A stretch of 64,000 nucleotides of DNA from an uncultured Nitrososphaerota archaeon (GTDB lineage: Archaea; Thermoproteota; Nitrososphaeria; Nitrososphaerales; CADDZS01): positions 288,001 through 352,000 of the forward strand of contig CAWCYI010000004.1 of the NCBI GenBank assembly GCA_963799845.1. The letters are read 5' to 3'. A program made the position numbers and the translations under genes. Shown here one piece after another: positions 16,245 to 46,072 of the stretch; the stretch's first letter is position 1; each line of letters starts with the position of its first letter. A model generated the notes under the pieces. It saw nothing but the letters and a program-made list of their open reading frames with translations, was not told where the DNA came from and did no database searches.

Positions 16245-16526
16245 CTAATCTTTTACACCAACTATTGAATAAACTATCAGAGAAAAGCCAATTACTTCTG
16301 CCCCTGCCTCGATCGTTTCGACGATGGTTAGATCATAGTTCAAAAACTCAAACAAGAGCCCGGCCAAAGCCGCACCGATTGTTACGAACACGAAACCAAG
16401 AGCCAGAAAAAGAAGAGACTTGCTCTTTGTTTTTCTGTAGCCTTTTTGTGAATAATAGACAACAATTATTCCTAGAATCAAAATGGCAATTTGGAAAATG
16501 CGTAACAGGTCGAGAGTTACGGTCAA
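16245..16526 (-). CDS. Small 3-TM membrane protein
   Basis: Three hydrophobic helices; 4 bp downstream of the wHTH gene. Confidence 0.75.
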   Translation of the reverse strand: MTVTLDLLRIFQIAILILGIIVVYYSQKGYRKTKSKSLLFLALGFVFVTIGAALAGLLFEFLNYDLTIVETIEAGAEVIGFSLIVYSIVGVKD

Positions 16527-16530
16527 TTAT

Positions 16531-16887
16531 TTACGCCCTCATTGAAGACCACAATCGCGACAGTCTCGTGGCAACGTCCTCGTTCAGCTCAACGTCCAAC
16601 ACAATCTCGCCCTGATTCAATTGTAATTTTATGCTCCTGAAAGAGCTCCTGTAAAGTTCAAATTTCTTGCCGTCGTCAGTGATGATCGTCTTTTCAACCG
16701 TGAGTAGACCAATATCCCGCATTTCATTTACGCGGCGATACGACGTACTAATCGGAATCTGTTCGGACGCGCTCAGCTCTTCAACCGACCTCGCTCGATC
16801 TATCGTTCCCAAGAGAATCTTCCTCGAATATTCGTCAGCCAGCGCCCTAATCAGCGCGTCGCGGACGTTCTGGCCTGTTATTCTCAT
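16531..16887 (-). CDS. Winged-helix (ArsR-like) transcription regulator, paralog 1
   Basis: LADEYSRKIL..SVEELS...IPISTSYRRVNEM..GLL...DDGKK wHTH. Confidence 0.88.
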   Translation of the reverse strand: MRITGQNVRDALIRALADEYSRKILLGTIDRARSVEELSASEQIPISTSYRRVNEMRDIGLLTVEKTIITDDGKKFELYRSSFRSIKLQLNQGEIVLDVELNEDVATRLSRLWSSMRA

Positions 16888-16956
16888 TTCTTCGACCCGG
16901 CATTGAAAAGACCTAGCTTTCGGAACTTTTTGATTGATCTAATAAGGCAGTACACG

Positions 16957-16974
16957 ATTCTCACGAGTGATAAT
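16957..16974 (-). promoter_or_regulatory. 18-bp regulon palindrome for wHTH/3-TM operon
   Basis: ATTCTCA-cgag-TGATAAT, 11 bp upstream of TTATTAGA on minus strand. Confidence 0.75.
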
Positions 16975-16992
16975 GATCTGAAGGGGTAGAAA

Positions 16993-17008
16993 CCCGAACA
17001 GATTCGGG
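16993..17008. promoter_or_regulatory. Second palindrome CCCGAA-N4-TTCGGG
   Basis: Perfect inverted repeat cccgaa-caga-ttcggg; near-identical copy at 29871. Confidence 0.55.
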
Positions 17009-17021
17009 ATTTTCAAGAGTT

Positions 17022-17039
17022 GCTATCAATTTTGATGAT
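17022..17039 (+). promoter_or_regulatory. 18-bp regulon palindrome for 17096 gene
   Basis: GCTATCA-attt-TGATGAT + CGT, 11 bp to TTTAAGTA. Confidence 0.65.
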
Positions 17040-17095
17040 CGTCTCCCGGCTTTAAGTACCAATGCCCCCCAAATGACTCACAAGTGAAAAACTAA

Positions 17096-17671
17096 ATGCT
17101 AAAGTCTCAAGAACAAACTGTAAAGCAAGTACCCGTAACGACTAGCAGATGGGCAAGCAGATTTACCTGGGCAGCCGTGGTCCAGGGTCTGATCCTAACA
17201 ATCATCACGGTGCTCATCGTGGAGCCGCTCAGCTACTTCGGCATCAATTCGTACTACAGCCCGTCTAAAGTTATAGCGGGAGGCGGAGGAGGAACATGGC
17301 TGTTCACTGGCTACATTCTATATCTTACGGTAGGCGTTATCGCGGTCGCAGTCACTGCAATGTTCTACTTCTTCATCGAAGGAGTCAACGGCAAGGTGTA
17401 CCATGGTCTGACGAACTACCTCGCCTGGGGGCACTATATATTCATGAATGTGGGAGTCGCTGGTTCTATGCTCCTCATGATCTGGGGTGGTTATATGGCA
17501 GGTTATGCCGCAGCTCCAGTTGCCTCGGGAGGCCTGGGTTACACAGATCTACAAATCCACGTGAACTATCTCGGTCAGCTAGTCAACCCAATTGGCGGAT
17601 TCGTCCTTCTGGCAGCAGTCGGTGCAATCCTCGGAGGACTTGGATTCATACTCAGAAGCAGGATGAAGTAA
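17096..17671 (+). CDS. Multi-pass membrane protein of unknown function
   Basis: 4-5 hydrophobic helices; own TATA promoter. Confidence 0.75.
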   Translation: MLKSQEQTVKQVPVTTSRWASRFTWAAVVQGLILTIITVLIVEPLSYFGINSYYSPSKVIAGGGGGTWLFTGYILYLTVGVIAVAVTAMFYFFIEGVNGKVYHGLTNYLAWGHYIFMNVGVAGSMLLMIWGGYMAGYAAAPVASGGLGYTDLQIHVNYLGQLVNPIGGFVLLAAVGAILGGLGFILRSRMK

Positions 17672-17685
17672 TCATCGAAATCTAT

Positions 17686-17716
17686 GCGGGGATAAAATTC
17701 CCCCACCTATTTTTTA
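17686..17716 (+). terminator. Possible terminator (short hairpin + T-tract)
   Basis: gcggggat...attccccc followed by tatttttt. Confidence 0.35.
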
Positions 17717-17762
17717 TTCGGAGAAATAATTTTTAGAGAAATAAAATGGTGAAATTGGTAAA

Positions 17763-17987
17763 ATGAGAGCAAAGTACGCAACAGTCAAGATTCCACAAGA
17801 ACTCGCCATGAAGCTGGATGAGTTTGTCGTGGACTTGGGTTATAGAAGCAGGGCAGAAATTGTGAATGACGCTATCAGAAGGTTTATCGATGAAAGGAAA
17901 AGGTTGGATAATCCATCGGCAGTCAGCGAATCGGAAGTACCTACTCGGAATCTCAAACGGAATGAACCGATCAAGTTAACTCCATGA
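17763..17987 (+). CDS. CopG/ribbon-helix-helix regulator
   Basis: TVKIPQEL..KLDE....GYRSRAEIVNDAIRRF. Confidence 0.85.
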   Translation: MRAKYATVKIPQELAMKLDEFVVDLGYRSRAEIVNDAIRRFIDERKRLDNPSAVSESEVPTRNLKRNEPIKLTP

Positions 17988-18030
17988 GTTTAAGCTCGGT
18001 TAGGTTAAGTTGCAACGTTCTCCTTCAGTC

Positions 18031-18459
18031 ATGAAAGTTCTCGATGTCATGTCAACGGATCTTGTCACCAGTCAGGCTGATGAACCACTTAACGAAGCCG
18101 TGCATCGAATGCTGCAGCGAGATGTCGGGTGTATAATAGTAATGGATGATTCGGTTGTGGAGGGGATCATAACGAAGGGTGACGTGTTGAAGAAGGCATT
18201 TCTTCTCGATCTGGATGCTCGGGAAGTTTCTTCGAAAAAGGTGATGTCGAAACCGGTAATAGCAATCGACCCGGACTCGACGCTTGAAGAAGCTTCGCGA
18301 ATGATGACTAGAAACAACGTGTCGAAGCTTGCGGTCGTCAAGGGAAAGAAACTTGTCGGTGTTGTGACTTCCAGCGATATCATCAGGGCGGAGCCAATGC
18401 AGGTGGGCTATCTTCAGGAACTCATCAAAGCAAGGTTTGTGCCCCACGACATCGGCTAA
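18031..18459 (+). CDS. CBS-pair protein
   Basis: VLDVM...GIITKGD, VM...VGVVTSSD. Confidence 0.9.
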   Translation: MKVLDVMSTDLVTSQADEPLNEAVHRMLQRDVGCIIVMDDSVVEGIITKGDVLKKAFLLDLDAREVSSKKVMSKPVIAIDPDSTLEEASRMMTRNNVSKLAVVKGKKLVGVVTSSDIIRAEPMQVGYLQELIKARFVPHDIG

Positions 18460-18485
18460 ATCCCTGGGGCCGATGATGATCGTTC

Positions 18486-18644
18486 ATGAAAGTAGATTCG
18501 AAGAGGGCGAAAGCTGCTGGAAGAAAATGTCCCAAGTGTGGCACGGTTATGATAAACGGTGTTTGTCCTAAATGCAAATACTCGGCAAAGACAGCCTACA
18601 AAAGTAGACGGGAAGCTAAGGAATTCACTTTTGCTGGCGACTGA
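18486..18644 (+). CDS. 52-aa zinc-finger microprotein (not in ORF track)
   Basis: MKVDSKRAKAAGRKCPKCGTVMINGVCPKCKYSAKTAYKSRREAKEFTFAGD; two CPKC motifs. Confidence 0.7.
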   Translation: MKVDSKRAKAAGRKCPKCGTVMINGVCPKCKYSAKTAYKSRREAKEFTFAGD

Positions 18645-18843: not shown

Positions 18844-19682
18844 TCAAGAAGTGCGGGTTGTCTCGGCTATATTCAACTGGCCTAATTCCCACGTCTTCAC
18901 GGTCAGATCCCAAGGAGTTACAATACCTCGATCTGTAAGAGCACAGTCATTGTCCTTCAGCGACAGCAATTCGGCTGCATCTGAGATTTGTTTTCTGCCG
19001 TCGATCCAGGGGACTTCTCCAAGTTCGATATCATCCAATGTTCCATCAAGCAATCTGTTCTGAAACCTCAAGATGTGGCCGAGTCTCTCTTGTTGGAACA
19101 AGTACGCAAGAATCTGTTTGTCAGAGATCACAGTCCTTGTACCTGAAATCTGGACACGTCTGAATTTTCGACGCCCAATCTCCTTCAAGGATACGTCGAG
19201 CTTGTTCCCCGAGAAAGTTGGAAGACAGGGAATGTCACTATATCATCGACTACAAGCTTCGACGAAAAAATTCCAAGATGATACAATTTCAAAAGATCTT
19301 TTACAGAAATTTTTTCATACTGACTTTTTTTTCCATGAACCAGGGCAAATCCAAAAGTGGATGATTGGAAGACATGCAGTAGAGAAAGAATGTCATCGTT
19401 CGAACTGATCGTTCCGGCCAGAAGGGAACTCTCGAGACAAGGAGAATTGAGAAACGAAGCGTAATTATGCGGATTCATTTGCATCATTTTCGAAACAATT
19501 GAATATCCGGAAATAACCAGTGGCCTTGCCTCCGAGGATCCCTGATTCGATTCTATTAACAGAAGGTCGAAATCATTTTCACGAAGTTTTTGAATCGCCT
19601 CTAGGATTATTGTCCTGCCGGATATAGTCTTGAGAGGTCTCACATCCAGACGTGGAAGGATTTCTTCTAGGTTAGCTGCCAA
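18844..19682 (-). CDS. Divergent 4xCBS-like protein (apparent frameshift at ~19200)
   Basis: ORFs 19185-19682 and 18844-19188 join by adding one base; aligns end-to-end with 30782-31588 (GYS, FGFA.V, TPWDL). Confidence 0.75.
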
Positions 19683-20373: not shown

Positions 20374-21306
20374 TCACGACATTGTCGTTCCTGCGTTACC
20401 ATCCAGTGCTTGCCTGCCTTGCTCCAGGGATGCAATTATCGCCTTCTCTCCCCCTGCTTCCAAAAAATTGATGGCGGCTTGAACTTTGGGTCCCATGCTC
20501 CCGGGAGGAAACTGCCCCTCTGTCAAGTATTTTCTTGCCTCCTCGATTGTTAGCGAATCAAGCTGCTTTTCATTAGTTTGACCATAATTTAGTGCAAGTT
20601 TCTCAACATCAGTCAGGATCAGTAGCACATCGACTTTCATCAACGAAGCAATCAAACTGGCGCTCAGGTCTTTATCGATCACTGCTTCAACTCCCACCAG
20701 GCTTCCGTCATCATTTCTTACCACTGGGATACCTCCTCCCCCTGAATGAATAATCATGAATCCTTCGTCGAACATTTTCCGAATTACCTTGAGTTCGACA
20801 ATCGATTTTGGTTTTGGTGATGGAACAACCCTGCGATACCCCTTGTTACTATCGTTCACGACGATCCACCCCTTCTCACTTGCGAGGTTTCTCGCCTCTG
20901 TTTCTGAATAGTAAGGGCCGATTGGTTTGGTCGGATTTGCAAATGCCGAGTCGTTCCTGTCTACTATTGTTTGCGTGAGGATCGTGACCATTGGAATGTC
21001 CAACCCCGCCTTCCTTAGTTCATTGTCTAGGGACTGTTGCAACATATAACCGATCATGCCCTGACTTTCTGCCCCACAAACATCGAGAGGCATTGGCGGG
21101 AGAACATTTTTCGCGAGATCGTCTCTTAGTAGGATATCTCCGACTTGGGGGCCGTTTCCGTGAGTGATTGTTAACAGTGCTCCGTGAAGAAACAAATCTA
21201 CAAGTTGAGAAGATGTGTGACGTATGTTGGCAAACTGCTGTTCGGAAGTTCCAGTTTCTTTCCGTTGAAGAATCGCGTTTCCCCCGAGAGCTACAAGAAC
21301 TTTCAT
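20374..21306 (-). CDS. arcC: Carbamate kinase
   Basis: VALGGNAIL, THGNGPQVG, RRVVPSP, VIDKD, GSMGPK. Confidence 0.96.
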   Translation of the reverse strand: MKVLVALGGNAILQRKETGTSEQQFANIRHTSSQLVDLFLHGALLTITHGNGPQVGDILLRDDLAKNVLPPMPLDVCGAESQGMIGYMLQQSLDNELRKAGLDIPMVTILTQTIVDRNDSAFANPTKPIGPYYSETEARNLASEKGWIVVNDSNKGYRRVVPSPKPKSIVELKVIRKMFDEGFMIIHSGGGGIPVVRNDDGSLVGVEAVIDKDLSASLIASLMKVDVLLILTDVEKLALNYGQTNEKQLDSLTIEEARKYLTEGQFPPGSMGPKVQAAINFLEAGGEKAIIASLEQGRQALDGNAGTTMS

Positions 21307-21366
21307 CTGGCTAACCAAATCCTCACCTGAATACAATTATAGTTTGGCAATTTAAGCTGAGAGAAC

Positions 21367-21384: not shown

Positions 21385-21432
21385 GACCGATCTCTGTTTC
21401 GATACTGATACCTCTTTATCTATAACCTCGAA

Positions 21433-21450
21433 ATTATCAAAATTGGCGAT
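21433..21450 (+). promoter_or_regulatory. 18-bp regulon palindrome for CBS-HPF gene
   Basis: ATTATCA-aaat-TGGCGAT, 11 bp to CTTAAATA. Confidence 0.6.
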
Positions 21451-21493
21451 CATCCTCGTTTCTTAAATAGCTCAATCGGCAACTAATTCCAAA

Positions 21494-22648
21494 ATGTCCT
21501 ATTCACATTCAATCGATCATCTCAGAGTTTCAGATTTTGTTGAACCTGCTTCTATGTTTAATTCATCTGATTCTGTATCGCATTTGATCGGAACTTTGAA
21601 GAGATCCAAGGGGTATGAGGGTTTCGTCGAGGAAACCAGTCGGACTTGCACGATAACTCTCCGCGAAATTCTAGATGTTGAGAGCGCAGATACGACTAAG
21701 GTCTCCGCACTAATGCTTCCAGTACCGAGATTGAACGCAGGCGATTCGATTATCTTTGCAGCAAAACTGATGTTCGAAAACAAATTGAGGGCGCTCCCAG
21801 TCTACGAAAATGGGAAACTGCAGGGAAAAGTAACTTCGCCATCGATTGTCAGAAGAATGATAGAATCAAATCCTCCCGAAGAAACGCTCCCAAAGATTAT
21901 GACTCCGGGTCCTATTTGCCTTGTAGATTCGGATGCAATGTCGAAAGCGAGGAGTATAATGATAAGAAGAAAAATCGACCAGCTCCCGATTCTCAGAGCG
22001 GGAGAACTGAGCGGCGTAATAACCTCGGAAGATATCGTCTTCAGCTTTCTTTCTGCTCCGCTGGATAGAGATTCGAAGGGAGGGCGAGAAGACAGCCGAT
22101 TTAGTGCCCCGGTGTCAACTCTTGCCTCCGTCGAAACGACATCTAACGACATCAAGGACTCACTTTCAAATGTCGCTCAGGAGATGCTGAGGATGCGGAC
22201 GAACTATTCAGTAATATTGGGCGGTGGATCTGTCAAAGGCATAGTTACGTTTAGAGACTTTCTGAAGTTGCTGCCGATCAGTGGAGCAAATGAGGACGTA
22301 CCAGTCTCGATCATTGGACTGCCCGACAATCCACTAGAAGCAGAACTGGTCACGTCGAAATTCACCGCTTCGGTGCGCATGCTGCAGAGGATGGATCCCA
22401 CCGTGAGCGAGGTCAGAGCCGTAATCAAGAACAAGGAGGTTAATTCGAATACGATACTGCATCAGGTACAGGTCTTCATCGACAGTTCAAAGTGGCACGA
22501 AAGCTATGAAGCTTCCGGGTACGACATCTCGAAAGTATTCGCCGAGATTGATACATGGATTAAGCGAATAGCCTCAAAGCATGACTTCAAACCTGACCGG
22601 GAAAGAATGTCATTCAAGACTGTCAGGCACTCTGACGGAAACGTCTAA
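21494..22648 (+). CDS. 4xCBS protein with C-terminal HPF/RaiA-like domain (putative Hib-type ribosome hibernation factor)
   Basis: Four CBS repeats then a ~110-aa beta-alpha-beta-beta-beta-alpha-like domain (VSIIGLP...EASGYDISKVFAEI). Confidence 0.7.
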   Translation: MSYSHSIDHLRVSDFVEPASMFNSSDSVSHLIGTLKRSKGYEGFVEETSRTCTITLREILDVESADTTKVSALMLPVPRLNAGDSIIFAAKLMFENKLRALPVYENGKLQGKVTSPSIVRRMIESNPPEETLPKIMTPGPICLVDSDAMSKARSIMIRRKIDQLPILRAGELSGVITSEDIVFSFLSAPLDRDSKGGREDSRFSAPVSTLASVETTSNDIKDSLSNVAQEMLRMRTNYSVILGGGSVKGIVTFRDFLKLLPISGANEDVPVSIIGLPDNPLEAELVTSKFTASVRMLQRMDPTVSEVRAVIKNKEVNSNTILHQVQVFIDSSKWHESYEASGYDISKVFAEIDTWIKRIASKHDFKPDRERMSFKTVRHSDGNV

Positions 22649-24661: not shown

Positions 24662-24671
24662 CACCCGAATA

Positions 24672-24689
24672 ATTCTCAGTGTTGGGAAT
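24672..24689 (+). promoter_or_regulatory. 18-bp regulon palindrome for APC-arcB-arcA operon
   Basis: ATTCTCA-gtgt-TGGGAAT + CGT, 11 bp to ATAAATAT. Confidence 0.75.
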
Positions 24690-24744
24690 CGTCTCCATGG
24701 ATAAATATCGTCAGAGTGGTCTTTCAAAGTCAGGTCACTGAGAA

Positions 24745-26334: not shown

Positions 26335-26468
26335 TAAGAAGCCTTCCGCTCGGCGACTCTGCATCCTTCCTCCTTGAATCGATTCTTAGACGAGCCGCCA
26401 AACTGAACAAAGAAATAAAGCAGGAAATGGAGCTCGATTTGTTGAATCGAATGGTGGTCAGTGTATGA
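26331..26468 (+). CDS. 45-aa ORF resembling the OTCase N-terminus
   Basis: MIRSLPLGDSASFLLESILRRAAKLNKEIKQEMELDLLNRMVVSV; ATGA overlaps with both neighbours. Confidence 0.5.
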   Translation: MIRSLPLGDSASFLLESILRRAAKLNKEIKQEMELDLLNRMVVSV

Positions 26469-32578: not shown

Positions 32579-32636
32579 AATTGCATCATCCGCTCAGGGG
32601 TAAAGGAGCAAGTGTCAGTATTTATGGGAGGCTACG

Positions 32637-32654
32637 ATTCCCACGGTTGAGAAC
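32637..32654 (-). promoter_or_regulatory. 18-bp regulon palindrome for CBS/CBS-ZnF operon
   Basis: ATTCCCA-cggt-TGAGAAC; CGT and 11 bp to ATAAATAC on minus strand. Confidence 0.75.
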
Positions 32655-32674
32655 CAAAAATCCTAGGCAATTCG

Positions 32675-34407: not shown

Positions 34408-34455
34408 TTTGTTTTCAACCTTAATCTAATTTAGACAGAGATAAAGACCGTGACG

Positions 34456-34473
34456 ATTCTCAACGGTGATAAC
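34456..34473 (-). promoter_or_regulatory. 18-bp regulon palindrome for CBS gene
   Basis: ATTCTCA-acgg-TGATAAC; CGT and 10 bp to TTTATCT on minus strand. Confidence 0.75.
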
Positions 34474-34701
34474 GAAGTCTCAAAGTTCCGAATACGAATT
34501 CAGATTCGGAGAACATCGATTGTAGATTGGCGGTTGAATTGTTGATATTTCTACGTTTGTAGCAGACGTGATAAATCAACTAGAAATAATTGAATTCGCA
34601 AGATTATGTTACAGAACCATTTCTTTAAGGGCAAAGAGTCGTGCAAGAATAGCATAAGGGAATTATTTCATAAAAACCTCTAGGGCCTGGTTTGTAATAA
34701 A

Positions 34702-35224
34702 ATGAACAGACGGGAGTTTATTCAAAGCCTGGTTGTGACGGCTGCCCTTGTAGGAACTGCAGGAGCTGGCTTGCTGGAGCTAGGGAATCTGGTCGAAAAA
34801 AGTCAGAACAATCAAGTTTCGCTGCCAACGATACAGCAATCAGGCACACAACAGAGTACCTCTATTGAAACTTCCAATTCAGCATCCGCTCAAATCAGTT
34901 CTAATTCTACAATCCCAACGGGTTATTCCCTCATCAATGAGTCAGCTATCAGGAAAGAGCTACGCATATTTTACGCATCCTACTTTCGGGAGTTCGATAG
35001 TGATTAGCATCACGGGACAGTGGAAGGCATTCAGCGCCACTTGCACTCACCGCCCGTGTACCGTCCAATACCAGAGCACGTTGATTTACTGCCCGTGTCA
35101 TGGCGGCACGTTCAATCCTAACGATGGAAGCGTCGAGGGAGGGCCGCCCCCGACTCCGTTGCCAGAGTACGCGGTTTTGATTCAAAATAACAATCTATAC
35201 GTCGGCGACACACAAATCAACTAG
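34702..35224 (+). CDS. Tat-exported Rieske [2Fe-2S] protein (apparent frameshift ~34930-34960)
   Basis: MNRREF Tat signal in one frame; CTHRPC and CPCHGG, GPPPTPL in the next. Confidence 0.82.
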
Positions 35225-38057: not shown

Positions 38058-38354
38058 TCAGACGACGAGGCCTGCGATAAGGAGGACCACGATGAAGGAG
38101 GCTCCCGCGATTATCGGGATCCTTCCGAACCGATCATGCTCCATTATTGATCTTACCAAGTATGAAATCATGAAGAAGGCGACGAGGTCGATGGCTAGGT
38201 AGACTGCAAAGCTTGACTCGACACTGCCCCCGATTGGATTGAGGATCCACAAGAAATAAACCGTGAGAAGCTCGAGAAGTATAAGCAACGCGACAATCCG
38301 GACTGCAAGCTTCTCGTACGCGTCAGAGATGCTACCACTGCTCACTTCTTCCAC
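38058..38354 (-). CDS. Small 3-TM protein, last gene of Rieske/cyt b operon
   Basis: Overlaps the cytochrome b stop; three helices. Confidence 0.7.
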   Translation of the reverse strand: MEEVSSGSISDAYEKLAVRIVALLILLELLTVYFLWILNPIGGSVESSFAVYLAIDLVAFFMISYLVRSIMEHDRFGRIPIIAGASFIVVLLIAGLVV

Positions 38355-39874
38355 CCCACCTCAAACGCCCTGACTCGTTTCTTTAACGAACCCGTTGAGA
38401 GGTCGAGCCTGTACAGCAGGTACGCAGCACCACACACCGCAACTGAGATCAGCGCCAATGATGCACTCAGCGAGTAAAGCAGAGTTGTTGAGAGCGCATC
38501 AACGGTCATCATACTCCCGATCGCAGTTATTGAACCACTGATACCGAAAGTCCCCAATACGAGGAGAATCACGAAACTACCAGCGGTCCAAAATGAGGCG
38601 GAACGCAGCGCCGACTGCACGGGCGGCGCTCTAACCGCAGCTCCTCCTGAAGGTGGAGAAGCTTGCGTGACTTTAGAGATTCCTCCGAAGACGAGCCTAT
38701 ATGCCGCCACCGAGCAGAGTGTCACCAGAAGAGCGGTACCGCCGAGCACGAGAACTGCCTGTTCGTTTGATATTATCTGCCCCGGCGTTAGCCTACCCCA
38801 AACAGTGAGCACTGCAATCTCAGCCACGAAGATGAGTCCGAGGGTGATGTACTTCATTCTTTTCGTGATTGCCCTGGTCTGGCCTCTGTCTATGAAGGGC
38901 AGAAAGATCAATGCTAGGAAAATCAATGTAATAACGCTGAGGGCAACAGGCAGGCCCCAAGTCTCGAAAGCCTGTATCTTCAGAATCTGATAGATCCAGA
39001 GAAAGTACCAGTCCGGTTGCGCCGTGAACTGAGCCGCCGCAGTTGCCGAGTACTCCGGAGGTAGACTCAAAGGAAAGATGATTGAGATGAGGAGCATCGC
39101 TGAACCGAACAGGGCAGCGAGTTCAAGCAGGTAAAAGGAGACGTCTGGAAAGATAGGTATAAGCTTCCGTTTCGTTGTCGCGGAGGCAGTCACGGGTTCG
39201 GCTATTCCGTGCACCTCCAGCATGTACATCTTCACCGCCAGCAACACAAGAAGTACCGCAGGGAGTACGACAACGTGCAAGTCATAAAACCTGAGCAGCT
39301 CCCCCGCGTCTCCTCCGCTTCCCACTATTAGGAAGGTTAGGAACGATGAAAGTTGGCTCGGCAACGCGCTAATCATCCCCATCCCCACGTCCGTAGCAGA
39401 TTTCGAGACGACCGTCCACGGGAGAAGATATCCGGTGAACCCAAATCCGAGTGTGACGAATCCCATCAACATCCCGACAATCCACATCAGCTCCCTGGGT
39501 TTCTTCTGGACGGAGACGAAGTATCCACGCATCAAGTGCATGAATGCTAGGAAGATCATCGCGTAAGCCGTGTACAGGTGCACGGTCTCGAGAAAGGTCC
39601 CGTAACTCACATTCTGGAAGATGTACTGCGTGGTGGCGTACGCTTGGGTCGGCCCCGGAACGTAGTACAACATCAATAACACTCCCGTAATCCCCTGAAT
39701 TACGAAGGCAACTACAGCCAAGGCCCCCAACCAGTAGAACGGATTTATCGAGTACTCAGGAGCCGGGCGCAGTAAAGGATAGGAAAGTCCCAGCCTGTCA
39801 TCGAACCAACCAGTCAATTTTTCGGCCGGCGTCGTCCTAACCGGTTCGGACGGGTCTTCTGTGCTCTCAACCAA
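38342..39874 (-). CDS. Cytochrome b of a Rieske/cytochrome b complex (b + subunit IV fused, extra TMs)
   Basis: QGITG.LL..YYVP, H-x13-H in helix B, FTGYLLPW, PDWY. Confidence 0.92.
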   Translation of the reverse strand: MVESTEDPSEPVRTTPAEKLTGWFDDRLGLSYPLLRPAPEYSINPFYWLGALAVVAFVIQGITGVLLMLYYVPGPTQAYATTQYIFQNVSYGTFLETVHLYTAYAMIFLAFMHLMRGYFVSVQKKPRELMWIVGMLMGFVTLGFGFTGYLLPWTVVSKSATDVGMGMISALPSQLSSFLTFLIVGSGGDAGELLRFYDLHVVVLPAVLLVLLAVKMYMLEVHGIAEPVTASATTKRKLIPIFPDVSFYLLELAALFGSAMLLISIIFPLSLPPEYSATAAAQFTAQPDWYFLWIYQILKIQAFETWGLPVALSVITLIFLALIFLPFIDRGQTRAITKRMKYITLGLIFVAEIAVLTVWGRLTPGQIISNEQAVLVLGGTALLVTLCSVAAYRLVFGGISKVTQASPPSGGAAVRAPPVQSALRSASFWTAGSFVILLVLGTFGISGSITAIGSMMTVDALSTTLLYSLSASLALISVAVCGAAYLLYRLDLSTGSLKKRVRAFEVGWKK

Positions 39875-39875
39875 G

Positions 39876-40673
39876 TTAGGACACCAATGTCCCGCCTTGC
39901 AGATCGTATAGCACATTATCGCTGCCCGTGTGGTAGCCGAAGATGGTTGGAGGTGACATTCCCGTTGCGTAGATGTCTCCGGTCGAGTCGTCGTAGCTCA
40001 GCATCACTTGGGGTACCGGCCTCGGAGCTGGTCCTCCCAGCACCTTCGCGCTGTTTGCCAAGTCGTAAGAGGAACCGTGACAGCAGCAGTAGCCCACAGG
40101 CCCGGATGCCTTGTATGTGTTATCGCATCCTGGTGATGCACCCGGCGCCACGAAACCGTAGATGCAACCCAAGTGCTGGCAGATCTGACTGAAAGCGACG
40201 ATGTCGCCGTCGGGGCCTACCCCGTTCAGTGCCTTCTCGCCTAGCTTCACGAGAAGATTCGGCGTCTCTTCAAGCGGATAGTTGAACGTGACGGTACTAC
40301 CTCCCGTCAAGTCACTAATGTTTGCGACCTTGATTGTGGGAAAAGGACCTGATGACGATGATGATGTCGTGGTCGAAGACTCTGAAGCGGTGCTCTCAGT
40401 GCTTTCTGTGCTGCTCTCGCTCGTCGGCTGTGATGCTACAGTCGAAGTGACGGTCACAGTTGCGGTCTCAATCTGAGTCTGGGTGGGGATGACCTCAGCA
40501 GGCAGCGCTTCAGACGGGCTCACTATAGAACGTGTTACTGATCCTATTCCCAGAGCGGCCAAGACCACCCCAAAGGTTAGGCCGACCTTAAGAAAATTCC
40601 TTCGGGAGTTTTCCTTTGCATCTGTGCGGGCATTGTCTGGAGCACTCTCACCGCCATCGTTCTCTTGTGGCAT
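39876..40673 (-). CDS. Rieske iron-sulfur subunit (SoxL-like), Tat signal
   Basis: SRRNFLK, CQHLGC, CCCHGSSY, GPAPRP. Confidence 0.92.
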   Translation of the reverse strand: MPQENDGGESAPDNARTDAKENSRRNFLKVGLTFGVVLAALGIGSVTRSIVSPSEALPAEVIPTQTQIETATVTVTSTVASQPTSESSTESTESTASESSTTTSSSSSGPFPTIKVANISDLTGGSTVTFNYPLEETPNLLVKLGEKALNGVGPDGDIVAFSQICQHLGCIYGFVAPGASPGCDNTYKASGPVGYCCCHGSSYDLANSAKVLGGPAPRPVPQVMLSYDDSTGDIYATGMSPPTIFGYHTGSDNVLYDLQGGTLVS

Positions 40674-40712
40674 TGTATCACCCGCTCACGGAGTTCTACA
40701 GCAGTGATATGC

Positions 40713-42243
40713 TTACCGCCCCGCGCTTTCACGAATCGGTCTTGCAACCATTCCTGCTATCAGGCCCACAATTAGGGTTACCACTGCTGTGATGAGGGCC
40801 AGGTCGAAGGATAATCCCCCACTACTAGAGGATGTCGTGGAGGTGATTGTCGTTGACACGGGAGCAGCTGTCGAGGTTACCGTTTGGGTGATGACTGACG
40901 CCGTACTCGTCTCGGTGACCGAGGCAGGTACTCGTCTGGGTGAATGACGCCGTACTCGTCTGCGTGACTGATACGGTCACGGTCGATGGAGAACTAGTTC
41001 CTGTTGCTGAACCCTTACCGGATGATATTTCCGTCACAGTTCCATTGTATGCGAGTTTAACGGTGGCGTCCATAGTGTTTCCACCTACCATCGTATTGTT
41101 GCCGTTGACGACTAAGACTCCAATGGCCTCGTTCTGGAAGGTGTTCCCCGTAATCACAGTATTCACGGCAGCAACTGGCCCTTCGCCGCCGACGATGACT
41201 CCTTCGAGGGTCGGGAGATATCCATCTCCGCTTATGACGTTGTTCAAGATGGCGTTGCCTGTAACGACATCGCCTGGCGCATTATTGTGAACTATTACTC
41301 CGCCTTCGCCGTTGTCGATGATGTTGTTGCCAATAACTGTGTTATTGATCGCGACGGTGTTGGGTGTGTCTGCTGCCACTATTATGCCGTTCTGGTTGTC
41401 GATGACAACGTTGTCGCTGACTACGTTATTCGAGACGCCCTCTCCCTTGTCGTACGAAGAGACCACAATGGCGCAGTGATTCGGTCTGTTGTTAATTATT
41501 GTATTGCCGCTGATAGTGTTGTTGTTTCCGGGGTTCGGTGTTCCAGTCGGGATGTTCGAGCCTGGGGCGGCTGTAGCATTCCAGGACGGGTCGATAGCTC
41601 CGTCATCAGTTATGCCCACCCCACCGTACAGATTGCCTACAATCGTGTTGCCGTCGATTGCAGAGTCCGATGTTCCCGCTAACTGGATGGCTTTGTCTTC
41701 GCCTAGGCCAGCTTGTATGTTTAGGCCGTTGTTAGAGGCGAAGTCGTTCTCCACTCTTACGTTGGAGCTGTCTTGGACGAAGATTCCGTGGTTGTTAGCA
41801 TTAATGGTCGCGAACCCTTCGACGACCGTGCCCGAGGCAGACTCGCCGACGACTACGATGCCGTTCGCCAGTCCCGTCGCGTTTATGATAGTGCTCAGTG
41901 GCATCCCATTCTCTGACATCAGGTCAATGGGTGTCGTGATGACTACCATTTCATTATACGTGCCGGGTTCGACGATTATAGTCGAAGCGTTTTTTGAGCT
42001 CGCGTAGAAGCTCGTCGCCTGAGCTACCGCGTGAGTAATGGTGGCGAAGGGGCTAGCAAACGAACCGGTGCCAGTAGTGTCACTACCCGTTGGGCTTACG
42101 TATAATACACTGCTGTTGTCCGTTGGTGCAGCCGCACTTACTGTCCGGCCAAGAAGAGCACCGGACGATAAGGCAAATAGGATGACCAAGCATGTCGCCG
42201 TGAACATTTTCGTACTCAAGGTGAAATTTGCATTCTGTTGCAT
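40713..42243 (-). CDS. Secreted right-handed beta-helix protein with S/T linker and C-terminal anchor (apparent frameshift ~40926)
   Basis: YVSPTGSD..G...PFATI, NNT/GN PbH repeats. Removing one base restores TQTSTAS repeats and a TM helix ending at TAA 40713. Confidence 0.8.
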
Positions 42244-42413: not shown

Positions 42414-42935
42414 ATGGCAAAGAAAGATAGAGCCGAAAAAGAATCAAACAAGAATAATCGGATTGCAGTTTGGAGTCCGGATGAATACGCTCGTGAAATG
42501 GATCGAGTCTTTTCAGACTTTGAGCAACGGATGAACAAATCTTTCCCCGGTTCATTCGGCGGTGGTTTTCCATTCCCGAGATGGAGATCCTTTGAATTAC
42601 CTGAAGTGAGGCGCCCGTTCGCCGATTTGATAGATGCGGGTTCGGAGTATCGGGCCCGCGTGGAAGTACCGGGAATTCCAAAAGAGAAACTCAACATCTC
42701 AGTAACGCCAAAAGAAATCAAGATTGAGGGAGAGGCAGAGTCCAATTTTGACGAAAAGAAGGAGGGCTTCGTCAGGAGGGAAAGGACTTACTCGAAGGTT
42801 AGGAGAGAGTTGGCCTTCCCTGAGGACGTGATCGCGGAAAAAGCAGAAGCGACGGTTAAAGACGGGGTACTCGAAGTTAGGGTCCCAAAAAAGGTCCCGA
42901 GTGAGGCGAAAACTCACAAAGTTCAAATAAAGTGA
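42414..42935 (+). CDS. hsp20: Small heat shock protein Hsp20
   Basis: Alpha-crystallin domain: EVPGI.KE, RERTY, A..KDGVLEV.VPK, VQI. Confidence 0.94.
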   Translation: MAKKDRAEKESNKNNRIAVWSPDEYAREMDRVFSDFEQRMNKSFPGSFGGGFPFPRWRSFELPEVRRPFADLIDAGSEYRARVEVPGIPKEKLNISVTPKEIKIEGEAESNFDEKKEGFVRRERTYSKVRRELAFPEDVIAEKAEATVKDGVLEVRVPKKVPSEAKTHKVQIK

Positions 42936-43026
42936 GACGTCCCTCACTATCGTCCGGAACTCGGTCTAGAAAACTTCTAACAGTGGCCGAGATCAACTTT
43001 TTCGGATTACTCAATTGTTAGACACT

Positions 43027-43500
43027 ATGCTAATTCAGGTTGAAGTTCCCGACGGGACAAACGTGATTATCGGTCAATCTCATTTTATCAAGACAACAGA
43101 AGACATCCATGAAGCCCTGGTAAGTTCTGTTCCGGGGATTCAATTTGGACTTGCATTCTGTGAGTCATCGGGTCCAAGATTAGTACGCGTCGAGGGGACC
43201 AGCGAAGAGCTAAGGAAACTCGCCATTAAGAATGTTGTTGAAATCGGTGCTGGTCATTCCTTCATCATCTACATCAAGGGAGCTTTTCCAATCAACGTAT
43301 TGAACGCTCTGAAAAATCTGGGAGAGGTGTGCCAAATCTTCTGTGCTACTGCAAATCCGGTTCAGGTTATTGTGGCTCAGTCAGAGCAGGGCAGGGGAAT
43401 TTTGGGGGTCATTGATGGTGGCTCTCCGATGGGTGTTGAATTAGAACAGGATGTCAAGGAGCGACGGGCTTTTCTGAGGAAAATCGGGTACAAACTCTGA
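43027..43500 (+). CDS. Adenosine-specific kinase family (DUF355)
   Basis: NVIIGQSHFIKT.ED, AFCESSG, CATANP, GRGILGVIDG. Confidence 0.9.
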   Translation: MLIQVEVPDGTNVIIGQSHFIKTTEDIHEALVSSVPGIQFGLAFCESSGPRLVRVEGTSEELRKLAIKNVVEIGAGHSFIIYIKGAFPINVLNALKNLGEVCQIFCATANPVQVIVAQSEQGRGILGVIDGGSPMGVELEQDVKERRAFLRKIGYKL

Positions 43501-43558: not shown

Positions 43559-43987
43559 GTGAGCAAATTGCCAGCCTCTCTTATGGCTAAGGACGTGATG
43601 GATTCGAAAGTCGTAATGATGGATGCCTCGGCTATCGTGAATGATGCGATAAAGAAAATGGTATCTTCGGATACCTGGTCGATCTTGATCGAAAAGAATG
43701 GCCTTCCAATCGGTGTTCTGACAGAACGGGATATATTCAGGCGATGCCTAGGAATCGGGAATTCCCCTGACAAGATGATGGTTGAAGAAATCATGAGTTC
43801 TCCCATCGTTTCGGTAGCTCCGGACGATCGGATGGGAACGGTCATGGACACGATGGTTCAGAAGAATATTCGCCGTGTATTCGTAATAGAGAATGGCAAA
43901 GTTATTGGAAGGATTACTCAGACGAAGTTGTTTGATGATGCAGTCAATCTGATGGAGAGCCTTTCTTCCTTGAGGTACCAGATGTGA
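43559..43987 (+). CDS. CBS-pair protein
   Basis: GVLTERD, IMSSP, IRRVFV. Confidence 0.9.
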   Translation: MSKLPASLMAKDVMDSKVVMMDASAIVNDAIKKMVSSDTWSILIEKNGLPIGVLTERDIFRRCLGIGNSPDKMMVEEIMSSPIVSVAPDDRMGTVMDTMVQKNIRRVFVIENGKVIGRITQTKLFDDAVNLMESLSSLRYQM

Positions 43988-44106
43988 GCGCTTCAGTGTA
44001 TTCTGCCCTAGATCATTCTTCTAGTGAGATTTGATCTATCCCGCGTTATCGATTGTCGAAACTGCGACCGAAATTGGTTCAGGGATTTTTTCACCGGTGC
44101 GAAATT

Positions 44107-44608
44107 TCACTTTATGACAAGGACGTTGCAAGGGGCATGAAGTACTACCCCGCTCGAAACGCTTCCCAGCAGAAGCTTCTTGAAACCTCCCAGACCACGG
44201 GTGCCCATTACGATCAGGTCGATTTTTTCTCCGGTTGCCATATCGGTTATAGTCTCCACGATGGTCGAAGCTGTCCTCAGCACCTCTGATCTTGTACTAA
44301 CACCAAGCTGGTTTGCATTCAGCTACCATTTCTCCGACTGACTTTCTTGCATCCTGGTCCATGTAATCATAGTATTCATCAAATGTTTTCCGGGGCACAT
44401 CAAGGCCACCGACAAATCGAGGCATCGGTATGACACTGAGAACGATCAATTCCGCTCCGTATTCTTTTGCAATTCGTGCAGCAACCTCGGCTGCCTTCTT
44501 GGACATCGGTGAACCGTCGATCGGGACGAGAATCTTGGAAGGAGGAAAGGCCGATTCGAATTTTTCTTGCGATGATTCTGCGCTCAAAGTAGAATCCAGG
44601 TGCTCCAT
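44107..44608 (-). CDS. Universal stress protein (apparent frameshift ~44300-44322)
   Basis: KILVPIDGS in one frame; DLIVMGTRGLGGFKKLLLGSVS...CNVLVIK-TGA(44107) in the next. Confidence 0.85.
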
Positions 44609-44644
44609 TTTACGTGTGAGGATCACTAATAAGAGAATTAGACC

Positions 44645-44662
44645 ATTATCAATCTTGGGAAA
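44645..44662 (-). promoter_or_regulatory. 18-bp regulon palindrome for USP (minus)
   Basis: ATTATCA-atct-TGGGAAA, 11-12 bp from TTATTAG. Confidence 0.65.
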
Positions 44663-44702
44663 CTTTCTCAGACACCAAGTTTTTGTCCTGGCGAGAGAAG
44701 CT

Positions 44703-44720
44703 GCTCCTACGGTTGAAAAT
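44703..44720 (+). promoter_or_regulatory. 18-bp regulon palindrome for USP (plus)
   Basis: GCTCCTA-cggt-TGAAAAT + CGT, 11 bp to TTTAACTA. Confidence 0.6.
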
Positions 44721-44762
44721 CGTATACTAAGTTTAACTACCATATGCTCTTGAAACCGGCGC

Positions 44763-45207
44763 ATGGATCAAATTCTCGTGGCGGTTGACGGCTCCAAACA
44801 TTCCTTCAATATCGTGGACAAAGGTTGCGAACAGGCAAAGGCATTCTCTTCTTCCATTTTGCTGGTTTATGTGATGAAAGAGTATGTAGAGGAACCGGAA
44901 GGAATAGTGTCCTATGAAAAGTCTGAGGGTTATCAAGACGCGTTTTCCGATTATCTACAGCAACTGGGGGACCAAATAACGGGCAAGCTCAGCTGAGAAG
45001 ATCCAACAAGCGGGCATCCCTTTCCGCACAATTACTCCTTCAGGTAATGTGGCCGATGAAATTCTTAATGTCGCAAACGTGGAGAAGGTCAGAATGATCG
45101 TGATAGGAATCAAAGGTCTACATGGTCTGGCCAAAATTAGATCGCTCGGCAGCGTGACTAGAAGGGTCGCCGAAAACGCAGAATGTCCCGTACTTGTGGT
45201 GCCCTGA
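44763..45207 (+). CDS. Universal stress protein (apparent +1 frameshift at ~44990)
   Basis: ILVAVDGS then, after AGCTCAGCT, AEKIQ...IVIGIKGLHG..SLGSVTRRV..CPVLVVP-TGA. Confidence 0.85.
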
Positions 45208-45254
45208 CTAGATTCAATATCGTTTCTACAACAAGCTTCAGAAACGAGTTTCTA

Positions 45255-45740
45255 TCAGGTGCGACGCTCAAGAATCATGTACCACGTTCCTAGCGCCTTA
45301 GCACACAATCTCCCATCTCCATCTCGTATTTCAGCTTCGGCAACGGAAACATTCCGTCCGTGTCGGAGGACTCTACCTGTTGCCGTGAAGGGTTCCTTTC
45401 TTAGTGGTTCGAGAAAATTGATCTTGAGTTCCAGAGTGACTTGATCTATTCCGGTGTTATTCGTCATAACTGCTATTCCACCGACGTTATCTAGTGCAAA
45501 CGAGATTATTCCTCCATGAACTATCCCGCCGTGACGCGCAACTTCTTGACTGTAGGGAAAAGTCAGCTCCGCATAGCCGTCACCGACCTTCTTGACCGAG
45601 AACTTTGCTATAGAGAAAAGACCGCTCTCTCCCTGCAGGAACCTCTCCAGTTCGGATTCAACGCTCAGACCCTGGTTTCTCACAATTTCGAAGAGGCCCC
45701 TGAATCCACCAGAGCTCTTCAGCATTTCTTCGAAGCTCAT
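45255..45740 (-). CDS. PaaI-family hotdog thioesterase
   Basis: GIVHGG...LD, TLELKINFL.P. Confidence 0.9.
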   Translation of the reverse strand: MSFEEMLKSSGGFRGLFEIVRNQGLSVESELERFLQGESGLFSIAKFSVKKVGDGYAELTFPYSQEVARHGGIVHGGIISFALDNVGGIAVMTNNTGIDQVTLELKINFLEPLRKEPFTATGRVLRHGRNVSVAEAEIRDGDGRLCAKALGTWYMILERRT

Positions 45741-45818
45741 ATCTTCGGCAGGGAACGGTTTCTTTTCTTATTACATTAACGAATAGCCTCACTATTCCAA
45801 GAAGGCGCTTCCTTTCCG

Positions 45819-45836
45819 AATATCAAAAATGATAAT
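45819..45836 (+). promoter_or_regulatory. 18-bp regulon palindrome for small zinc-ribbon gene
   Basis: AATATCA-aaaa-TGATAAT + CGT, 11 bp to TTCAAATA. Confidence 0.7.
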
Positions 45837-45892
45837 CGTCTCTTCCTTTCAAATACGACAATCGAGGGTAGACGTCTCAGGGATCGACGGGA

Positions 45893-46072
45893 ATGCCAAT
45901 AAAATGTCCTGATTGTTCCTTGGAAATGGTGAAGCACAAGAAATCCTTCATCCTCAATGAAAAGGGTGATGGTGGAACCACAAGGCACGTCATTGCCTAC
46001 GCATGTTTGAAATGTGGAATGCTCCGTCTCTATTTCGAGCCGACGAATCTGTCGCTCGCAGGGATGGAATGA
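45893..46072 (+). CDS. 59-aa zinc-ribbon microprotein (not in ORF track)
   Basis: MPIKCPDCSLEMVK...YACLKCGMLRLY...; has its own regulon promoter. Confidence 0.75.
   Translation: MPIKCPDCSLEMVKHKKSFILNEKGDGGTTRHVIAYACLKCGMLRLYFEPTNLSLAGME

Follow-up and report, generated by a model that had tools for sequence, protein, structure and literature searches.

A 20-bp palindrome, GATTMTCA-N4-TGAKAATC, stands ahead of about 70 promoters in the genome of an uncultured Nitrososphaerota archaeon (GenBank assembly GCA_963799845.1) and concentrates in two gene clusters, one of which is a 30-kb island in the stretch of DNA analyzed here. This stretch, the window, comprises 64,000 nucleotides of contig CAWCYI010000004.1 (positions 288,001 to 352,000), and the island occupies positions 16,245 to 46,072 counted from its first letter. 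The palindrome is very probably a real, directional and family-specific promoter element with two clusters, and it appears to be read by a family of small winged-helix proteins. On the basis of the genes that it precedes, the best single reading of the regulon is a programme for survival of oxygen or energy limitation, to which we assign a probability of about 0.5, with hypoxia as a plausible trigger. A sequence-only reading of the window, made without database searches, had proposed an archaeal analogue of the mycobacterial DosR programme placed behind a shared palindrome.

The palindrome was first spotted by eye in a listing of the intergenic sequences. In the window, the pattern GATTMTCANNNNTGAKAATC matched nine times with at most three mismatches against 1.44 expected, a count reached in none of 100 shuffles, and all nine matches lie between 16956 and 45837. 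When a weight matrix was used instead, all 16 window sites scoring at least 8 bits fell between 16956 and 45818, so that the site cluster matches the borders drawn earlier for the island; beyond them stand three weaker sites, of 7.1-7.8 bits. The extended form of the element is (a)cGATTMTCA-N4-TGAKAATCg, with a C at -1 and a G at +21 conserved outside the search pattern. Beyond these two positions the flanks carry no information content, and the palindrome is therefore not a repeat element. The motif is degenerate: enumeration of exact palindromes (half-sites of 5-7 nt, gaps of 0-13) returned none with three or more exact copies.

The same excess was found across the genome, where 53 matches with at most two mismatches compare with about 3 in an order-3 Markov simulation and 68 sites of at least 17 bits compare with 7 simulated. 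Composite sites, defined by a matrix score of at least 12 bits together with a GT and a TATA match in at least 5 of 8 positions, number 73 against 6 simulated. The GT stands on exactly one side of the palindrome in 38 of the 44 sites scoring at least 20 bits, its frequency in the genome being 5%. On this side, a TATA-like octamer begins 9-10 nt past the palindrome in 48 of the 73 composite sites, and the first start codon follows the octamer at a median of 37 nt. The palindrome thus keeps a fixed distance upstream of the TATA box and lies just upstream of the B recognition element (BRE) and TATA box, at roughly -60 to -41. The one-sided GT and the fixed offset together identify a directional element just upstream of the core promoter. 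Composite sites are clustered (Poisson P 2e-9): the island holds 9 where 0.47 would be expected, and a second cluster (C4:1,020,000-1,069,000) holds 19 where 0.78 would be expected. The single clustered system of the sequence-only reading holds as a co-regulated gene set behind one cis-element, except that the regulon spans the genome and has a second hot spot besides the island.

In Archaea, a site just upstream of the core promoter occupies the position typical of activators, and from this position we infer that the palindrome activates transcription. It is possible, although we think it doubtful, that the palindrome is instead a repressor operator and that the regulon is switched on when the protein is released. 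Small ArsR-type proteins are usually repressors, and a dimer on the site could keep transcription factor B away, because the expected BRE directly adjoins its proximal edge. A genome of another family (G025) carries a related palindrome, TATTATCAAGCTTGATTATC (L118:1449-1468, 19.5 bits), about 30 bp before the aligned start of its winged-helix orthologue, where it would overlap the promoter. However, repressor sites usually overlap or follow the TATA box or the transcription start site (compare Ptr2 and TrmBL1/Tgr), and archaeal activators are known to have the arrangement seen here, a fixed offset (9-10 nt at 48 of the 73 sites) from the TATA-like box. G025 has no strong sites elsewhere in its genome, and its arrangement may represent an ancestral, purely autoregulatory state.

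Conservation was examined in 12 other genomes of the same family (f1, 13 with this one) and in 18 genomes from other families of the order; one unpublished genome, G001, enters denominators only. With at most one mismatch, the pattern occurs in 10 of the 12 other family genomes in 3-39 copies, and the two motif-free genomes are 58% and 68% complete. Among the other families, 17 of 18 genomes hold 0-2 copies and one (G028) holds 8, while a reversed-pattern control gave no match in the family. Sites are conserved ahead of orthologous genes in two genera, most consistently ahead of Hsp20: in six of seven genomes, the gene for the orthologue (identity of 60% or more) is preceded within 260 bp by a site scoring at least 15 bits. 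The sequence-only reading had also asked whether ammonia-oxidizing archaea (AOA) lack the island. Four genomes positive for the ammonia monooxygenase gene amoA proved nearly motif-free (0, 2, 0 and 0 copies), and none of their 13 hsp20 loci has a site of at least 11 bits (0/14 when G028 is included).

Motif conservation in relatives was thus borne out, whereas conservation of the block was not. Synteny over the whole 30 kb is not seen in the family, and only sub-blocks are kept. Only short contigs match the island in the closest genome (G003), and in G007 homologues of island genes are dispersed over 116 kb of one contig. One sub-block (L001) reads pyruvate kinase, site, ornithine carbamoyltransferase (OTC), arginine deiminase (ADI), CBS protein and winged-helix protein. 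A second (L007) reads membrane protein, winged-helix protein, CBS-HPF protein, site, universal stress protein (USP), site, permease, ADI and arcC. The third (L021) is from a Gagatemarchaeum metagenome-assembled genome (AcS1-27) of another family and reads membrane protein, winged-helix protein, CBS-like protein, site, permease, OTC, ADI and arcC. The ADI operon carries a site in all three. In L021:4357-8161, the permease is 88% identical to that of the window as compared to 61% for OTC and 66% for ADI; this operon is therefore a mosaic, which points to exchange between families.

Outside the island, the second cluster was analyzed with Pfam on 23 genes (batches of 13 and 20, 10 of the latter being promoter-proximal). 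Its units include an FAD-binding oxidoreductase; CoxG, an amidohydrolase, a xanthine-dehydrogenase-type molybdoprotein (split) and a nitroreductase; a USP with an ABC exporter, and a second, ABC-2 exporter; a receiver-like protein with a phosphoribosyltransferase; two CBS proteins, one heading an operon with a class II-type ribonucleotide reductase (RNR, split); DnaK, with a regulator paralogue downstream in the same orientation; a PnrA-type binding protein with an ABC importer; AllG, a subunit of oxamate carbamoyltransferase, divergent from a second carbamate kinase; and a P-type cation ATPase. Sites elsewhere in the genome precede two more USPs, another CBS pair, a short-chain dehydrogenase/reductase (SDR), hydrolases, a CitMHS transporter and others. 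The genome has 28 CBS genes, of which 6 are among the 56 first genes behind composite sites (P 1.4e-7), and 11 USP genes, of which 3 are (P 1.1e-4). A blastp comparison among 64 provisional targets grouped only the CBS proteins, the USPs and two small sets of paralogues, and several targets of 191 aa were mutually unrelated.

A further site, at C7:34843, precedes a radical-SAM activase (C7:34306-34779, Fer4_12/Radical_SAM) followed by NrdD (C7:32622-34289, PF13597, 353 bits). The NrdD glycyl-radical enzyme and the adjacent activase are predicted to form a class III, oxygen-sensitive RNR. The small subunit (R2) of class I RNR was not found in the genome, which encodes two class II-type large subunits, one of them outside the regulon. 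This nrdG-nrdD operon lies just outside a duplicated part of C7: C7:35761-42589 and C4:1961285-1969443 are 94-97% identical, contain a 623-aa CBS protein and a weak site, and result either from recent duplication of the segment or from co-assembly of a strain variant.

In the window, Pfam was run on 40 open reading frames (ORFs) between 15049 and 48105, and the genes and sites of the island are collected in Table 1. The search recovered most of the inventory given by the sequence-only reading, namely the arcA, arcB and arcC genes with permease and pyruvate kinase (arcC also by TIGR00746), Hsp20, the adenosine-kinase-family gene and the Rieske/cytochrome b module. The ADI pathway is predicted to be complete, with arginine deiminase, ornithine carbamoyltransferase and carbamate kinase all encoded; arcC is separate and divergent from arcB-arcA. 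Seven of the eight proposed CBS proteins were found by Pfam and the eighth is merely CBS-like, and of the three proposed USPs all three loci exist but a single one is intact. The proposed ferredoxin fusion was not found: the island ORFs gave no Fer4 or Fer2 match in Pfam, CxxCxxCxxxC is absent from every frame of the window, and the sole relaxed four-cysteine cluster lies at 6835, outside the island. The nearest candidate for it is the Rieske-domain ORF at 34865-35224.

Table 1. Palindrome sites and genes of the island in window coordinates. Scores of sites are weight-matrix bits, followed by the gene or operon that the site faces.
Feature	Position	Strand	Remarks
Site	16956..16975	-	25.7 bits, GT and TATA-like box; winged-helix regulator gene
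Site	17021..17040	+	14.6 bits, GTC and TATA-like box; membrane protein 17096-17671
Site	21366		8.0 bits, TATA-like box; upstream of arcC
Site	21432..21451	+	12.9 bits, TATA-like box; HibA-like gene; 17.0 bits in G003
Site	24643		11.1 bits; upstream of pyruvate kinase
Site	24671..24690	+	23.8 bits, GTC and TATA-like box; permease-OTC-ADI operon
Site	32636..32655	-	21.6 bits, GT and TATA-like box; CBS 32138-32578 and 31578-32126
Site	34455-34474	-	22.0 bits; CBS 33955-34407
Site	42284	-	26.2 bits; beta-helix-Rieske-cytochrome b operon
Site	42345 (to 42364)	+	13.6 bits, GC instead of GT; side of the Hsp20-PF04008-CBS operon
Site	44644		split USP 44107-44764 (minus strand)
Site	45818	+	26.2 bits, GTC and TATA-like box; zinc-ribbon ORF 45893-46072; last site of the cluster
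Winged-helix protein	16531-16887	-	118 aa, HTH_20-like, no Cys or His
Membrane protein	17096-17671	+	191 aa, divergent from the winged-helix regulator gene
Ribbon-helix-helix-like ORF	within 17763-18644	+	74 aa, assigned by eye
CBS pair	18010-18459	+	Pfam
Zinc-ribbon ORF	18486-18644	+	52 aa
CBS-like protein	19185-19682		likeness to the 30560-31588 protein only
Carbamate kinase, arcC	20374-21336	-	TIGR00746, 416.5 bits (cut-off 358)
HibA/AHA-type factor (putative)	21494-22648	+	384 aa, four CBS domains and C-terminal HPF/RaiA-fold domain
Pyruvate kinase, long form	22645-24561	-	638 aa, PRK14725, 630 bits (cut-off 642)
Amino-acid permease, APC family	24745-26334	+	AA_permease_2, E 1.2e-54
Ornithine carbamoyltransferase	26465-27388	+	PF00185 and PF02729
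Arginine deiminase, arcA	27393-28709	+	PF02274, E 3.9e-39
USP, intact	28720-29196	-	
Winged-helix paralogue	29371-29826	-	151 aa, 49% identity to 16531-16887, no upstream site
HTH_10 (Bat-type) regulator	30046-30678	-	PF04967, E 2.3e-21, profile positions 1-53 of 53
CBS protein	30560-31588	+	Pfam, weak match, 25.5 bits
CBS protein with C-terminal zinc ribbon	31578-32126	-	Pfam
CBS protein	32138-32578	-	Pfam
CBS pair	33955-34407	-	Pfam
Rieske-domain protein, split gene	34702-35224	+	Rieske ORF 34865-35224, Tat-like leader (34702-) in another frame
Beta-helix/NosD-like, Rieske and cytochrome b operon	38342-42243	-	from site 42284
Cytochrome b	38342-39916	-	Pfam
Rieske protein	39876-40673	-	Pfam
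Hsp20	42414-42935	+	Pfam
PF04008 "adenosine-specific kinase" family (Adenosine_kin)	43015-43500	+	E 1.6e-74
CBS pair	43559-43987	+	Pfam
USP, split over two frames	44107-44764	-	site at 44644
USP, split over two frames	44763-45207	+	
Zinc-ribbon ORF	45893-46072	+	59 aa, behind the last site of the cluster

About two thirds of the island genes lie behind a site, in line with the earlier claim for most of them. The sites at 42284 and 42345 lie between divergent operons. A clear or moderate site also precedes a 103-aa ORF (33586-33897), and weaker sites of 8-13 bits precede arcC, the CBS-HPF gene, the pyruvate kinase gene and a 147-aa ORF. No site of at least 7 bits was found upstream of the intact USP gene, and none was found ahead of the regulator genes at 29371-30678, the CBS-like gene at 30560-31588, a ZIP-like membrane protein gene, the small Rieske gene, the second split USP gene or a thioesterase gene. 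The PPK2 (51657-52469) and CoA transferase (49907-51577) genes lie outside the island at a distance of 4-6 kb, as had been proposed.

The protein encoded at 21494-22648 has fifty homologues, each about 380 aa long, for which the most specific name given is "CBS domain-containing protein". A profile built from 38 homologues gave Pyrococcus abyssi HibA as its best match (9sr9_H, E 5.3e-30, positions 10-262; PDB entry 9SR9 is HibA-ATP). An AlphaFold2 (AF2) model based on the alignment reached a mean confidence (pLDDT) of 83.5, compared to 34 for a single-sequence run. Residues 265-373 of the model superposed on nine chains of RaiA, HPF, pY and RafH with Z scores of 10.4-11.8 over 91-106 aligned residues, and the CBS tetrad was closest to SriC/D, MJ1225, Dri and AMPK-gamma (Z 22-28). 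Foldseek with the model returned CBS tetrads only. Sequence searches with the C-terminal domain gave no S30AE match at E ≤1 in Pfam (PF02482 had zero matches in the 31 genomes), only a chance match in phmmer against the PDB, and no usable match for residues 268-384 in the protein atlas. The profile match and the modelled fold bear out the CBS-HPF factor of the sequence-only reading, and we file the protein as a HibA/AHA family member and putative ribosome hibernation factor. This family was described in 2026, and gene clusters of CBS modules are reported from 10% of archaeal genomes in the consulted parts of these sources (PMC13324472, PMC13728122).

The ADI pathway is induced by anoxia in many bacteria. 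Three oxygen-independent ATP-yielding steps, two predicted oxygen-independent RNRs, the chaperones, the putative hibernation factor, the many adenylate-binding proteins, the wide overlap with the DosR regulon and the hypoxic induction of similar genes in sponge symbionts together make oxygen or energy limitation the best single reading of the regulon. In the symbiont study, as far as the parts consulted extend, UspA, HSP20, CBS-domain proteins and transcription regulators were induced under in situ hypoxia in two Thaumarchaeota.

The same regulon and promoters could instead respond to proteotoxic stress, heat or the stationary phase, with the winged-helix protein as a counterpart of archaeal heat-shock regulators. 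We consider this rather unlikely. USPs belong to general stress responses, no target is linked to a site more consistently than Hsp20 (six of seven orthologues), DnaK lies behind a site with a regulator paralogue downstream in the same orientation, and HibA/AHA proteins act in the stationary phase according to the portions of their descriptions cited above. Heat, however, would leave two carbamate-kinase pathways, pyruvate kinase and the class III and second class II RNRs unexplained, and the sponge symbionts connect the induction of USP, Hsp20 and CBS proteins with hypoxia.

The regulators in the island are HTH_20-like, HTH_24-like and HTH_10 proteins without a Response_reg domain, which agrees with the proposed one-component rather than two-component control; the only receiver-like match is a cluster 2 target gene at a sub-threshold 26.4 bits (cut-off 30.2). 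The 118-aa winged-helix protein at 16531-16887 gave no NCBIfam match and no PDB relative at E ≤1 beyond one chance match. Its gene has a site 65-70 bp upstream in this genome (G000) and in G003, G007 and G010, and orthologues of about 45% identity in other families have a related palindrome within 150 bp upstream in three of five cases. When loci of similar length were compared, a site of at least 15 bits was found at 11 of 14 winged-helix loci, 3 of 10 HTH_10 loci, 1 of 12 HibA/CBS-HPF loci and 0 of 14 AOA hsp20 loci. A strong, correctly oriented site at the regulator's own gene, together with the count of 11 in 14, is the usual signature of autoregulation, and we therefore assign the site to the winged-helix family, with 16531-16887 as the best candidate regulator and itself a predicted target. 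The three full-length winged-helix paralogues of the genome, the third of which lies at C4:1050735-1051172, are all inside the two clusters.

Binding of the palindrome by the HTH_10 protein at 30046-30678, as an oxygen or redox activator, is unlikely in our view. Bat-family activators of anaerobic genes are known from haloarchaea, and the HTH_10 domain match is strong (E 2.3e-21). Nine of 10 aligned sequences retain a CxxC motif in the N-terminal domain; C18 and C111 are shared by most orthologues and absent from the paralogues. Orthologues of at least 49% identity occur in six family genomes, and the gene neighbours the winged-helix paralogue in four relatives. Nevertheless, the HTH_10 gene itself has no site, sites are found at far fewer of its loci than at winged-helix loci, and in G010 and G012, which have 6 and 11 copies of the motif, the only HTH_10 proteins are paralogues of 35% identity. 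We regard the protein as a candidate sensor of redox state or metals, or as a rival binder.

Under the oxygen- or energy-limitation reading, a dimer of the winged-helix protein or of a paralogue would bind the palindrome and activate transcription, including that of its own gene, so as to create a positive loop. The programme would be turned on when the energy supply fails, most likely upon loss of oxygen. ATP would then come from substrate-level steps in the ADI pathway, oxamate carbamoyltransferase with the second carbamate kinase, and pyruvate kinase, while the second class II RNR and the class III RNR would supply deoxynucleotides independently of oxygen. Hsp20, DnaK and the HibA-type hibernation factor would preserve proteins and ribosomes, and the numerous adenylate-binding CBS and USP proteins are possible sensors or effectors. 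As the regulator lacks cysteine, histidine and a sensor domain, the signal must arrive via a ligand or a partner, for which the neighbouring cysteine-bearing HTH_10 protein and the CBS and USP proteins are candidates. Taken as a whole, this scheme of an independently evolved DosR-like dormancy, in which an autoregulated sensor-less activator informed by CBS/USP or HTH_10 proteins combines fermentation, deoxynucleotide supply, chaperones and HibA-type hibernation for survival of an aerobic heterotroph through anoxic periods in waterlogged soil, is tentative.

Several observations weigh against the oxygen- or energy-limitation reading and its mechanism. Activation was deduced from site position, and the regulator is devoid of any sensor feature; its HTH_20 score of 26.0 bits is just below the Pfam cut-off of 27, and the orthologue in G009 has no upstream site. 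Many members of the regulon have no evident link to anoxia, such as the SDR, hydrolases, ABC transporters, BioY, VKOR and DUF proteins, and the Rieske/cytochrome b operon behind a site is a respiratory module. Cytochrome bd was not found in this genome, the assembly of which is 86.7% complete with 4.9% contamination. Full-length ADI is accessory, since three of the 13 family genomes and none of the 18 from other families have it, and a site of at least 12.9 bits precedes 3 of 11 CBS-HPF orthologues. The nrdG-like activase gene heading the nrdGD operon was found in 1 of 13 family genomes, namely this one, which together with the position of the operon beside a recent segmental duplication means that nrdGD is not a family trait. 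Among the chaperone targets, Hsp20 and DnaK are best conserved, and both would fit a response to heat or general stress equally well. In addition, some regulon genes are split between frames, and the gene calls under the genome statistics come from a simple in-house ORF caller and are crude.

Splits over two adjacent frames affect two USPs and a Rieske gene in the window (44107-45207 and 34702-35224), the xanthine-dehydrogenase-type molybdoprotein and the class II-type RNR (L081:8678-11195 and L082:5483-7581). Since splits are also found elsewhere in the genome, we suspect indel errors of the long-read assembly rather than decay, the alternative being several pseudogenes within the regulon.

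A role in acid tolerance, in which ammonia from the ADI pathway and from oxamate carbamoyltransferase with carbamate kinase buffers the cytoplasm in acid soil, appears distinctly improbable. Both carbamoyl-phosphate routes yield ammonia and the regulon includes a cation P-type ATPase; also counting against an oxygen programme, the consulted parts of Sheridan et al. 2023 read arcA as an acid-tolerance gene of heterotrophic terrestrial Thaumarchaeota and Gagatemarchaeum. However, the RNRs, HibA-type protein, CBS proteins, nitroreductase and xanthine-dehydrogenase-type genes have no evident role in pH homeostasis, and an ADI that is accessory within the family is a poor basis for it. That stress genes and a chance motif are merely neighbours, as the missing synteny and the flanking insertion sequence (IS) might suggest, has a negligible probability, being contradicted by site counts far above shuffles and simulations in both window and genome, strict directionality, conservation ahead of orthologues in two genera and the clustering.

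The source assembly comprises 4.6 Mb in 9 contigs at 47% GC, and the closest relatives of its ADI are from metagenome-assembled genomes of Nitrososphaerales and Thaumarchaeota of soil and peat origin. No archaeal amoA was found in this genome or in the 12 others of the family; the same search was positive in 4 of the 18 genomes from other families and therefore works. The genome encodes a haem-copper oxidase (COX1). The best explanation is a host that is a facultatively aerobic, non-ammonia-oxidizing soil archaeon of the Nitrososphaerales. The thaumarchaeote of the sequence-only reading is accordingly supported by the lineage, and GC content and size fit the "heterotrophic terrestrial Thaumarchaeota" in the consulted parts of Sheridan et al. 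2023, to which the organism may belong.

The island is bordered on the left by an rpoB/rpoA/EF-1alpha region, in which the largest RNA polymerase subunit (7086-10877, minus strand) is one 1263-aa ORF with Rpb1 domains 1-5 and is therefore not divided into A' and A''. On the right lie a zinc metalloprotease and an IS630-like element (47641-48659, minus strand) composed of an HTH_32/33 ORF and a DDE_3 ORF. The HTH ORF (L098:1-507) and an ORF at C6:476032-476538 have identical Pfam scores and are therefore probably copies of a single IS, and the C6 copy likewise sits among palindrome sites. The membrane protein at 17096-17671 had no Pfam or NCBIfam match, and its gene adjoins a winged-helix family gene in L007 and L021 as well. 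It has two recent paralogues on C8 and C3 with 86-87% identical DNA (window 16990-17966 corresponds to C8:48419-49394 and C3:43983-44504). The C8 match extends about 100 nt 5' of the membrane gene and across the site, which scores 13.5 bits in the C8 copy, and the C3 copy adjoins a tandem USP gene. The ORFs at 17763-18644 may be co-transcribed with the membrane protein gene. In the pyruvate kinase, about 300 aa precede the barrel domain as an N-terminal extension (22645-23600, minus strand), and the protein aligns to the 614-position NCBIfam model PRK14725 across its entire length. The C2H2/zinc-ribbon-like tail of the CBS protein at 31578-32126 gave weak Pfam matches (E 0.006-0.04), and solved CBS-zinc-ribbon and CBS-rubredoxin-like proteins (3ghd, 2qh1) were among the PDB matches of the HibA-like profile.

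No prior description of the motif or regulon was found in the literature on Thaumarchaeota and Nitrososphaerales (supplementary files aside), and the consulted parts of genome papers on these lineages mention arcA in passing, as an acid-tolerance gene. Findings of each kind were already known, namely regulons defined by an upstream site, ADI pathways, HibA, and sets of stress proteins with a common regulator. New are the cis-element, the family proposed as its regulator, a regulon of this size and clustering, and a composition like that of DosR in an archaeon. Non-ammonia-oxidizing soil Thaumarchaeota are abundant and uncultured, and an oxic versus anoxic lifestyle is disputed in the parts of the literature consulted. 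The element, the candidate regulator and the list of about 70 promoters make this question testable, as soil and peat metatranscriptomes across oxygen gradients can be read against the gene list. If true, this would be among the few large archaeal regulons with a clear promoter grammar, would place the recently described HibA hibernation factor in a regulatory context and would offer a case of convergence with the best-studied bacterial dormancy regulon.

Known archaeal regulators resemble the system in part. Ptr2 of Methanocaldococcus jannaschii and, when activating, TrmBL1 (TrmBL1/Tgr of the Thermococcales) bind palindromes just upstream of the BRE/TATA, and the site here is placed likewise. 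Phr and HSR1 are small winged-helix proteins that control hsp20 and their own gene, as may be the case here, but they are repressors whose sites overlap the promoter. In arc operons of bacteria and haloarchaea under ArcR-, ArgR- or ANR-type control, arcA, arcB, arcC and a permease are clustered, as in the island, where an activator-type site upstream also appears to be dedicated to their control. Neither the site nor the regulator family is the same, and about 70 promoters are involved rather than one operon. The CBS tetrad of the 21494-22648 protein has its best fold matches in SriA-D of Methanosarcina acetivorans and Dri of Pyrobaculum calidifontis (Z 23-28), whereas the other six island CBS proteins are single Bateman pairs (142-182 aa) or weak matches and not tetrads of this type. 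HibA itself is of the same length class (392 versus 384 aa) with the same four-CBS tetrad, and differs in that the Pfam S30AE model misses the C-terminal domain of the protein here. The gene at 21494-22648 sits in a stress regulon beside ADI genes, a genomic context that is not described in the consulted parts of the HibA/AHA papers (PMC13324472, PMC13728122).

The closest overall likeness put forward by the sequence-only reading was to the DosR regulon, and in gene families it reaches beyond the island. DosR controls about 50 genes behind a 20-bp palindrome upstream of promoters, its own gene being a member, and the regulon also includes hspX, nitroreductases and RafH. The consulted part of a DosR-related gene list adds seven USPs, nrdZ (class II RNR), a phosphoribosyltransferase, ctpF and hrp1. 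Common to both systems are several USPs, a CBS pair (Hrp1), Hsp20, an HPF-fold factor, a class II RNR, a phosphoribosyltransferase, a P-type ATPase (ctpF) and a nitroreductase, and the structures of Hrp1 (1xkf, Z 12.2) and RafH (8whx_w, Z 10.7) match the CBS pair and the model of the 21494-22648 protein, respectively. The control differs: DosR is a NarL-type response regulator with haem kinases, whereas no such pair is seen here and the candidate is a 118-aa winged-helix protein without a receiver domain. The palindrome is unrelated in sequence to that of DosR, the promoters are of the archaeal TATA type, and ATP would come from carbamoyl phosphate and pyruvate kinase where DosR has nitrate handling. 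The likeness between the two regulons is one of convergence, not descent.

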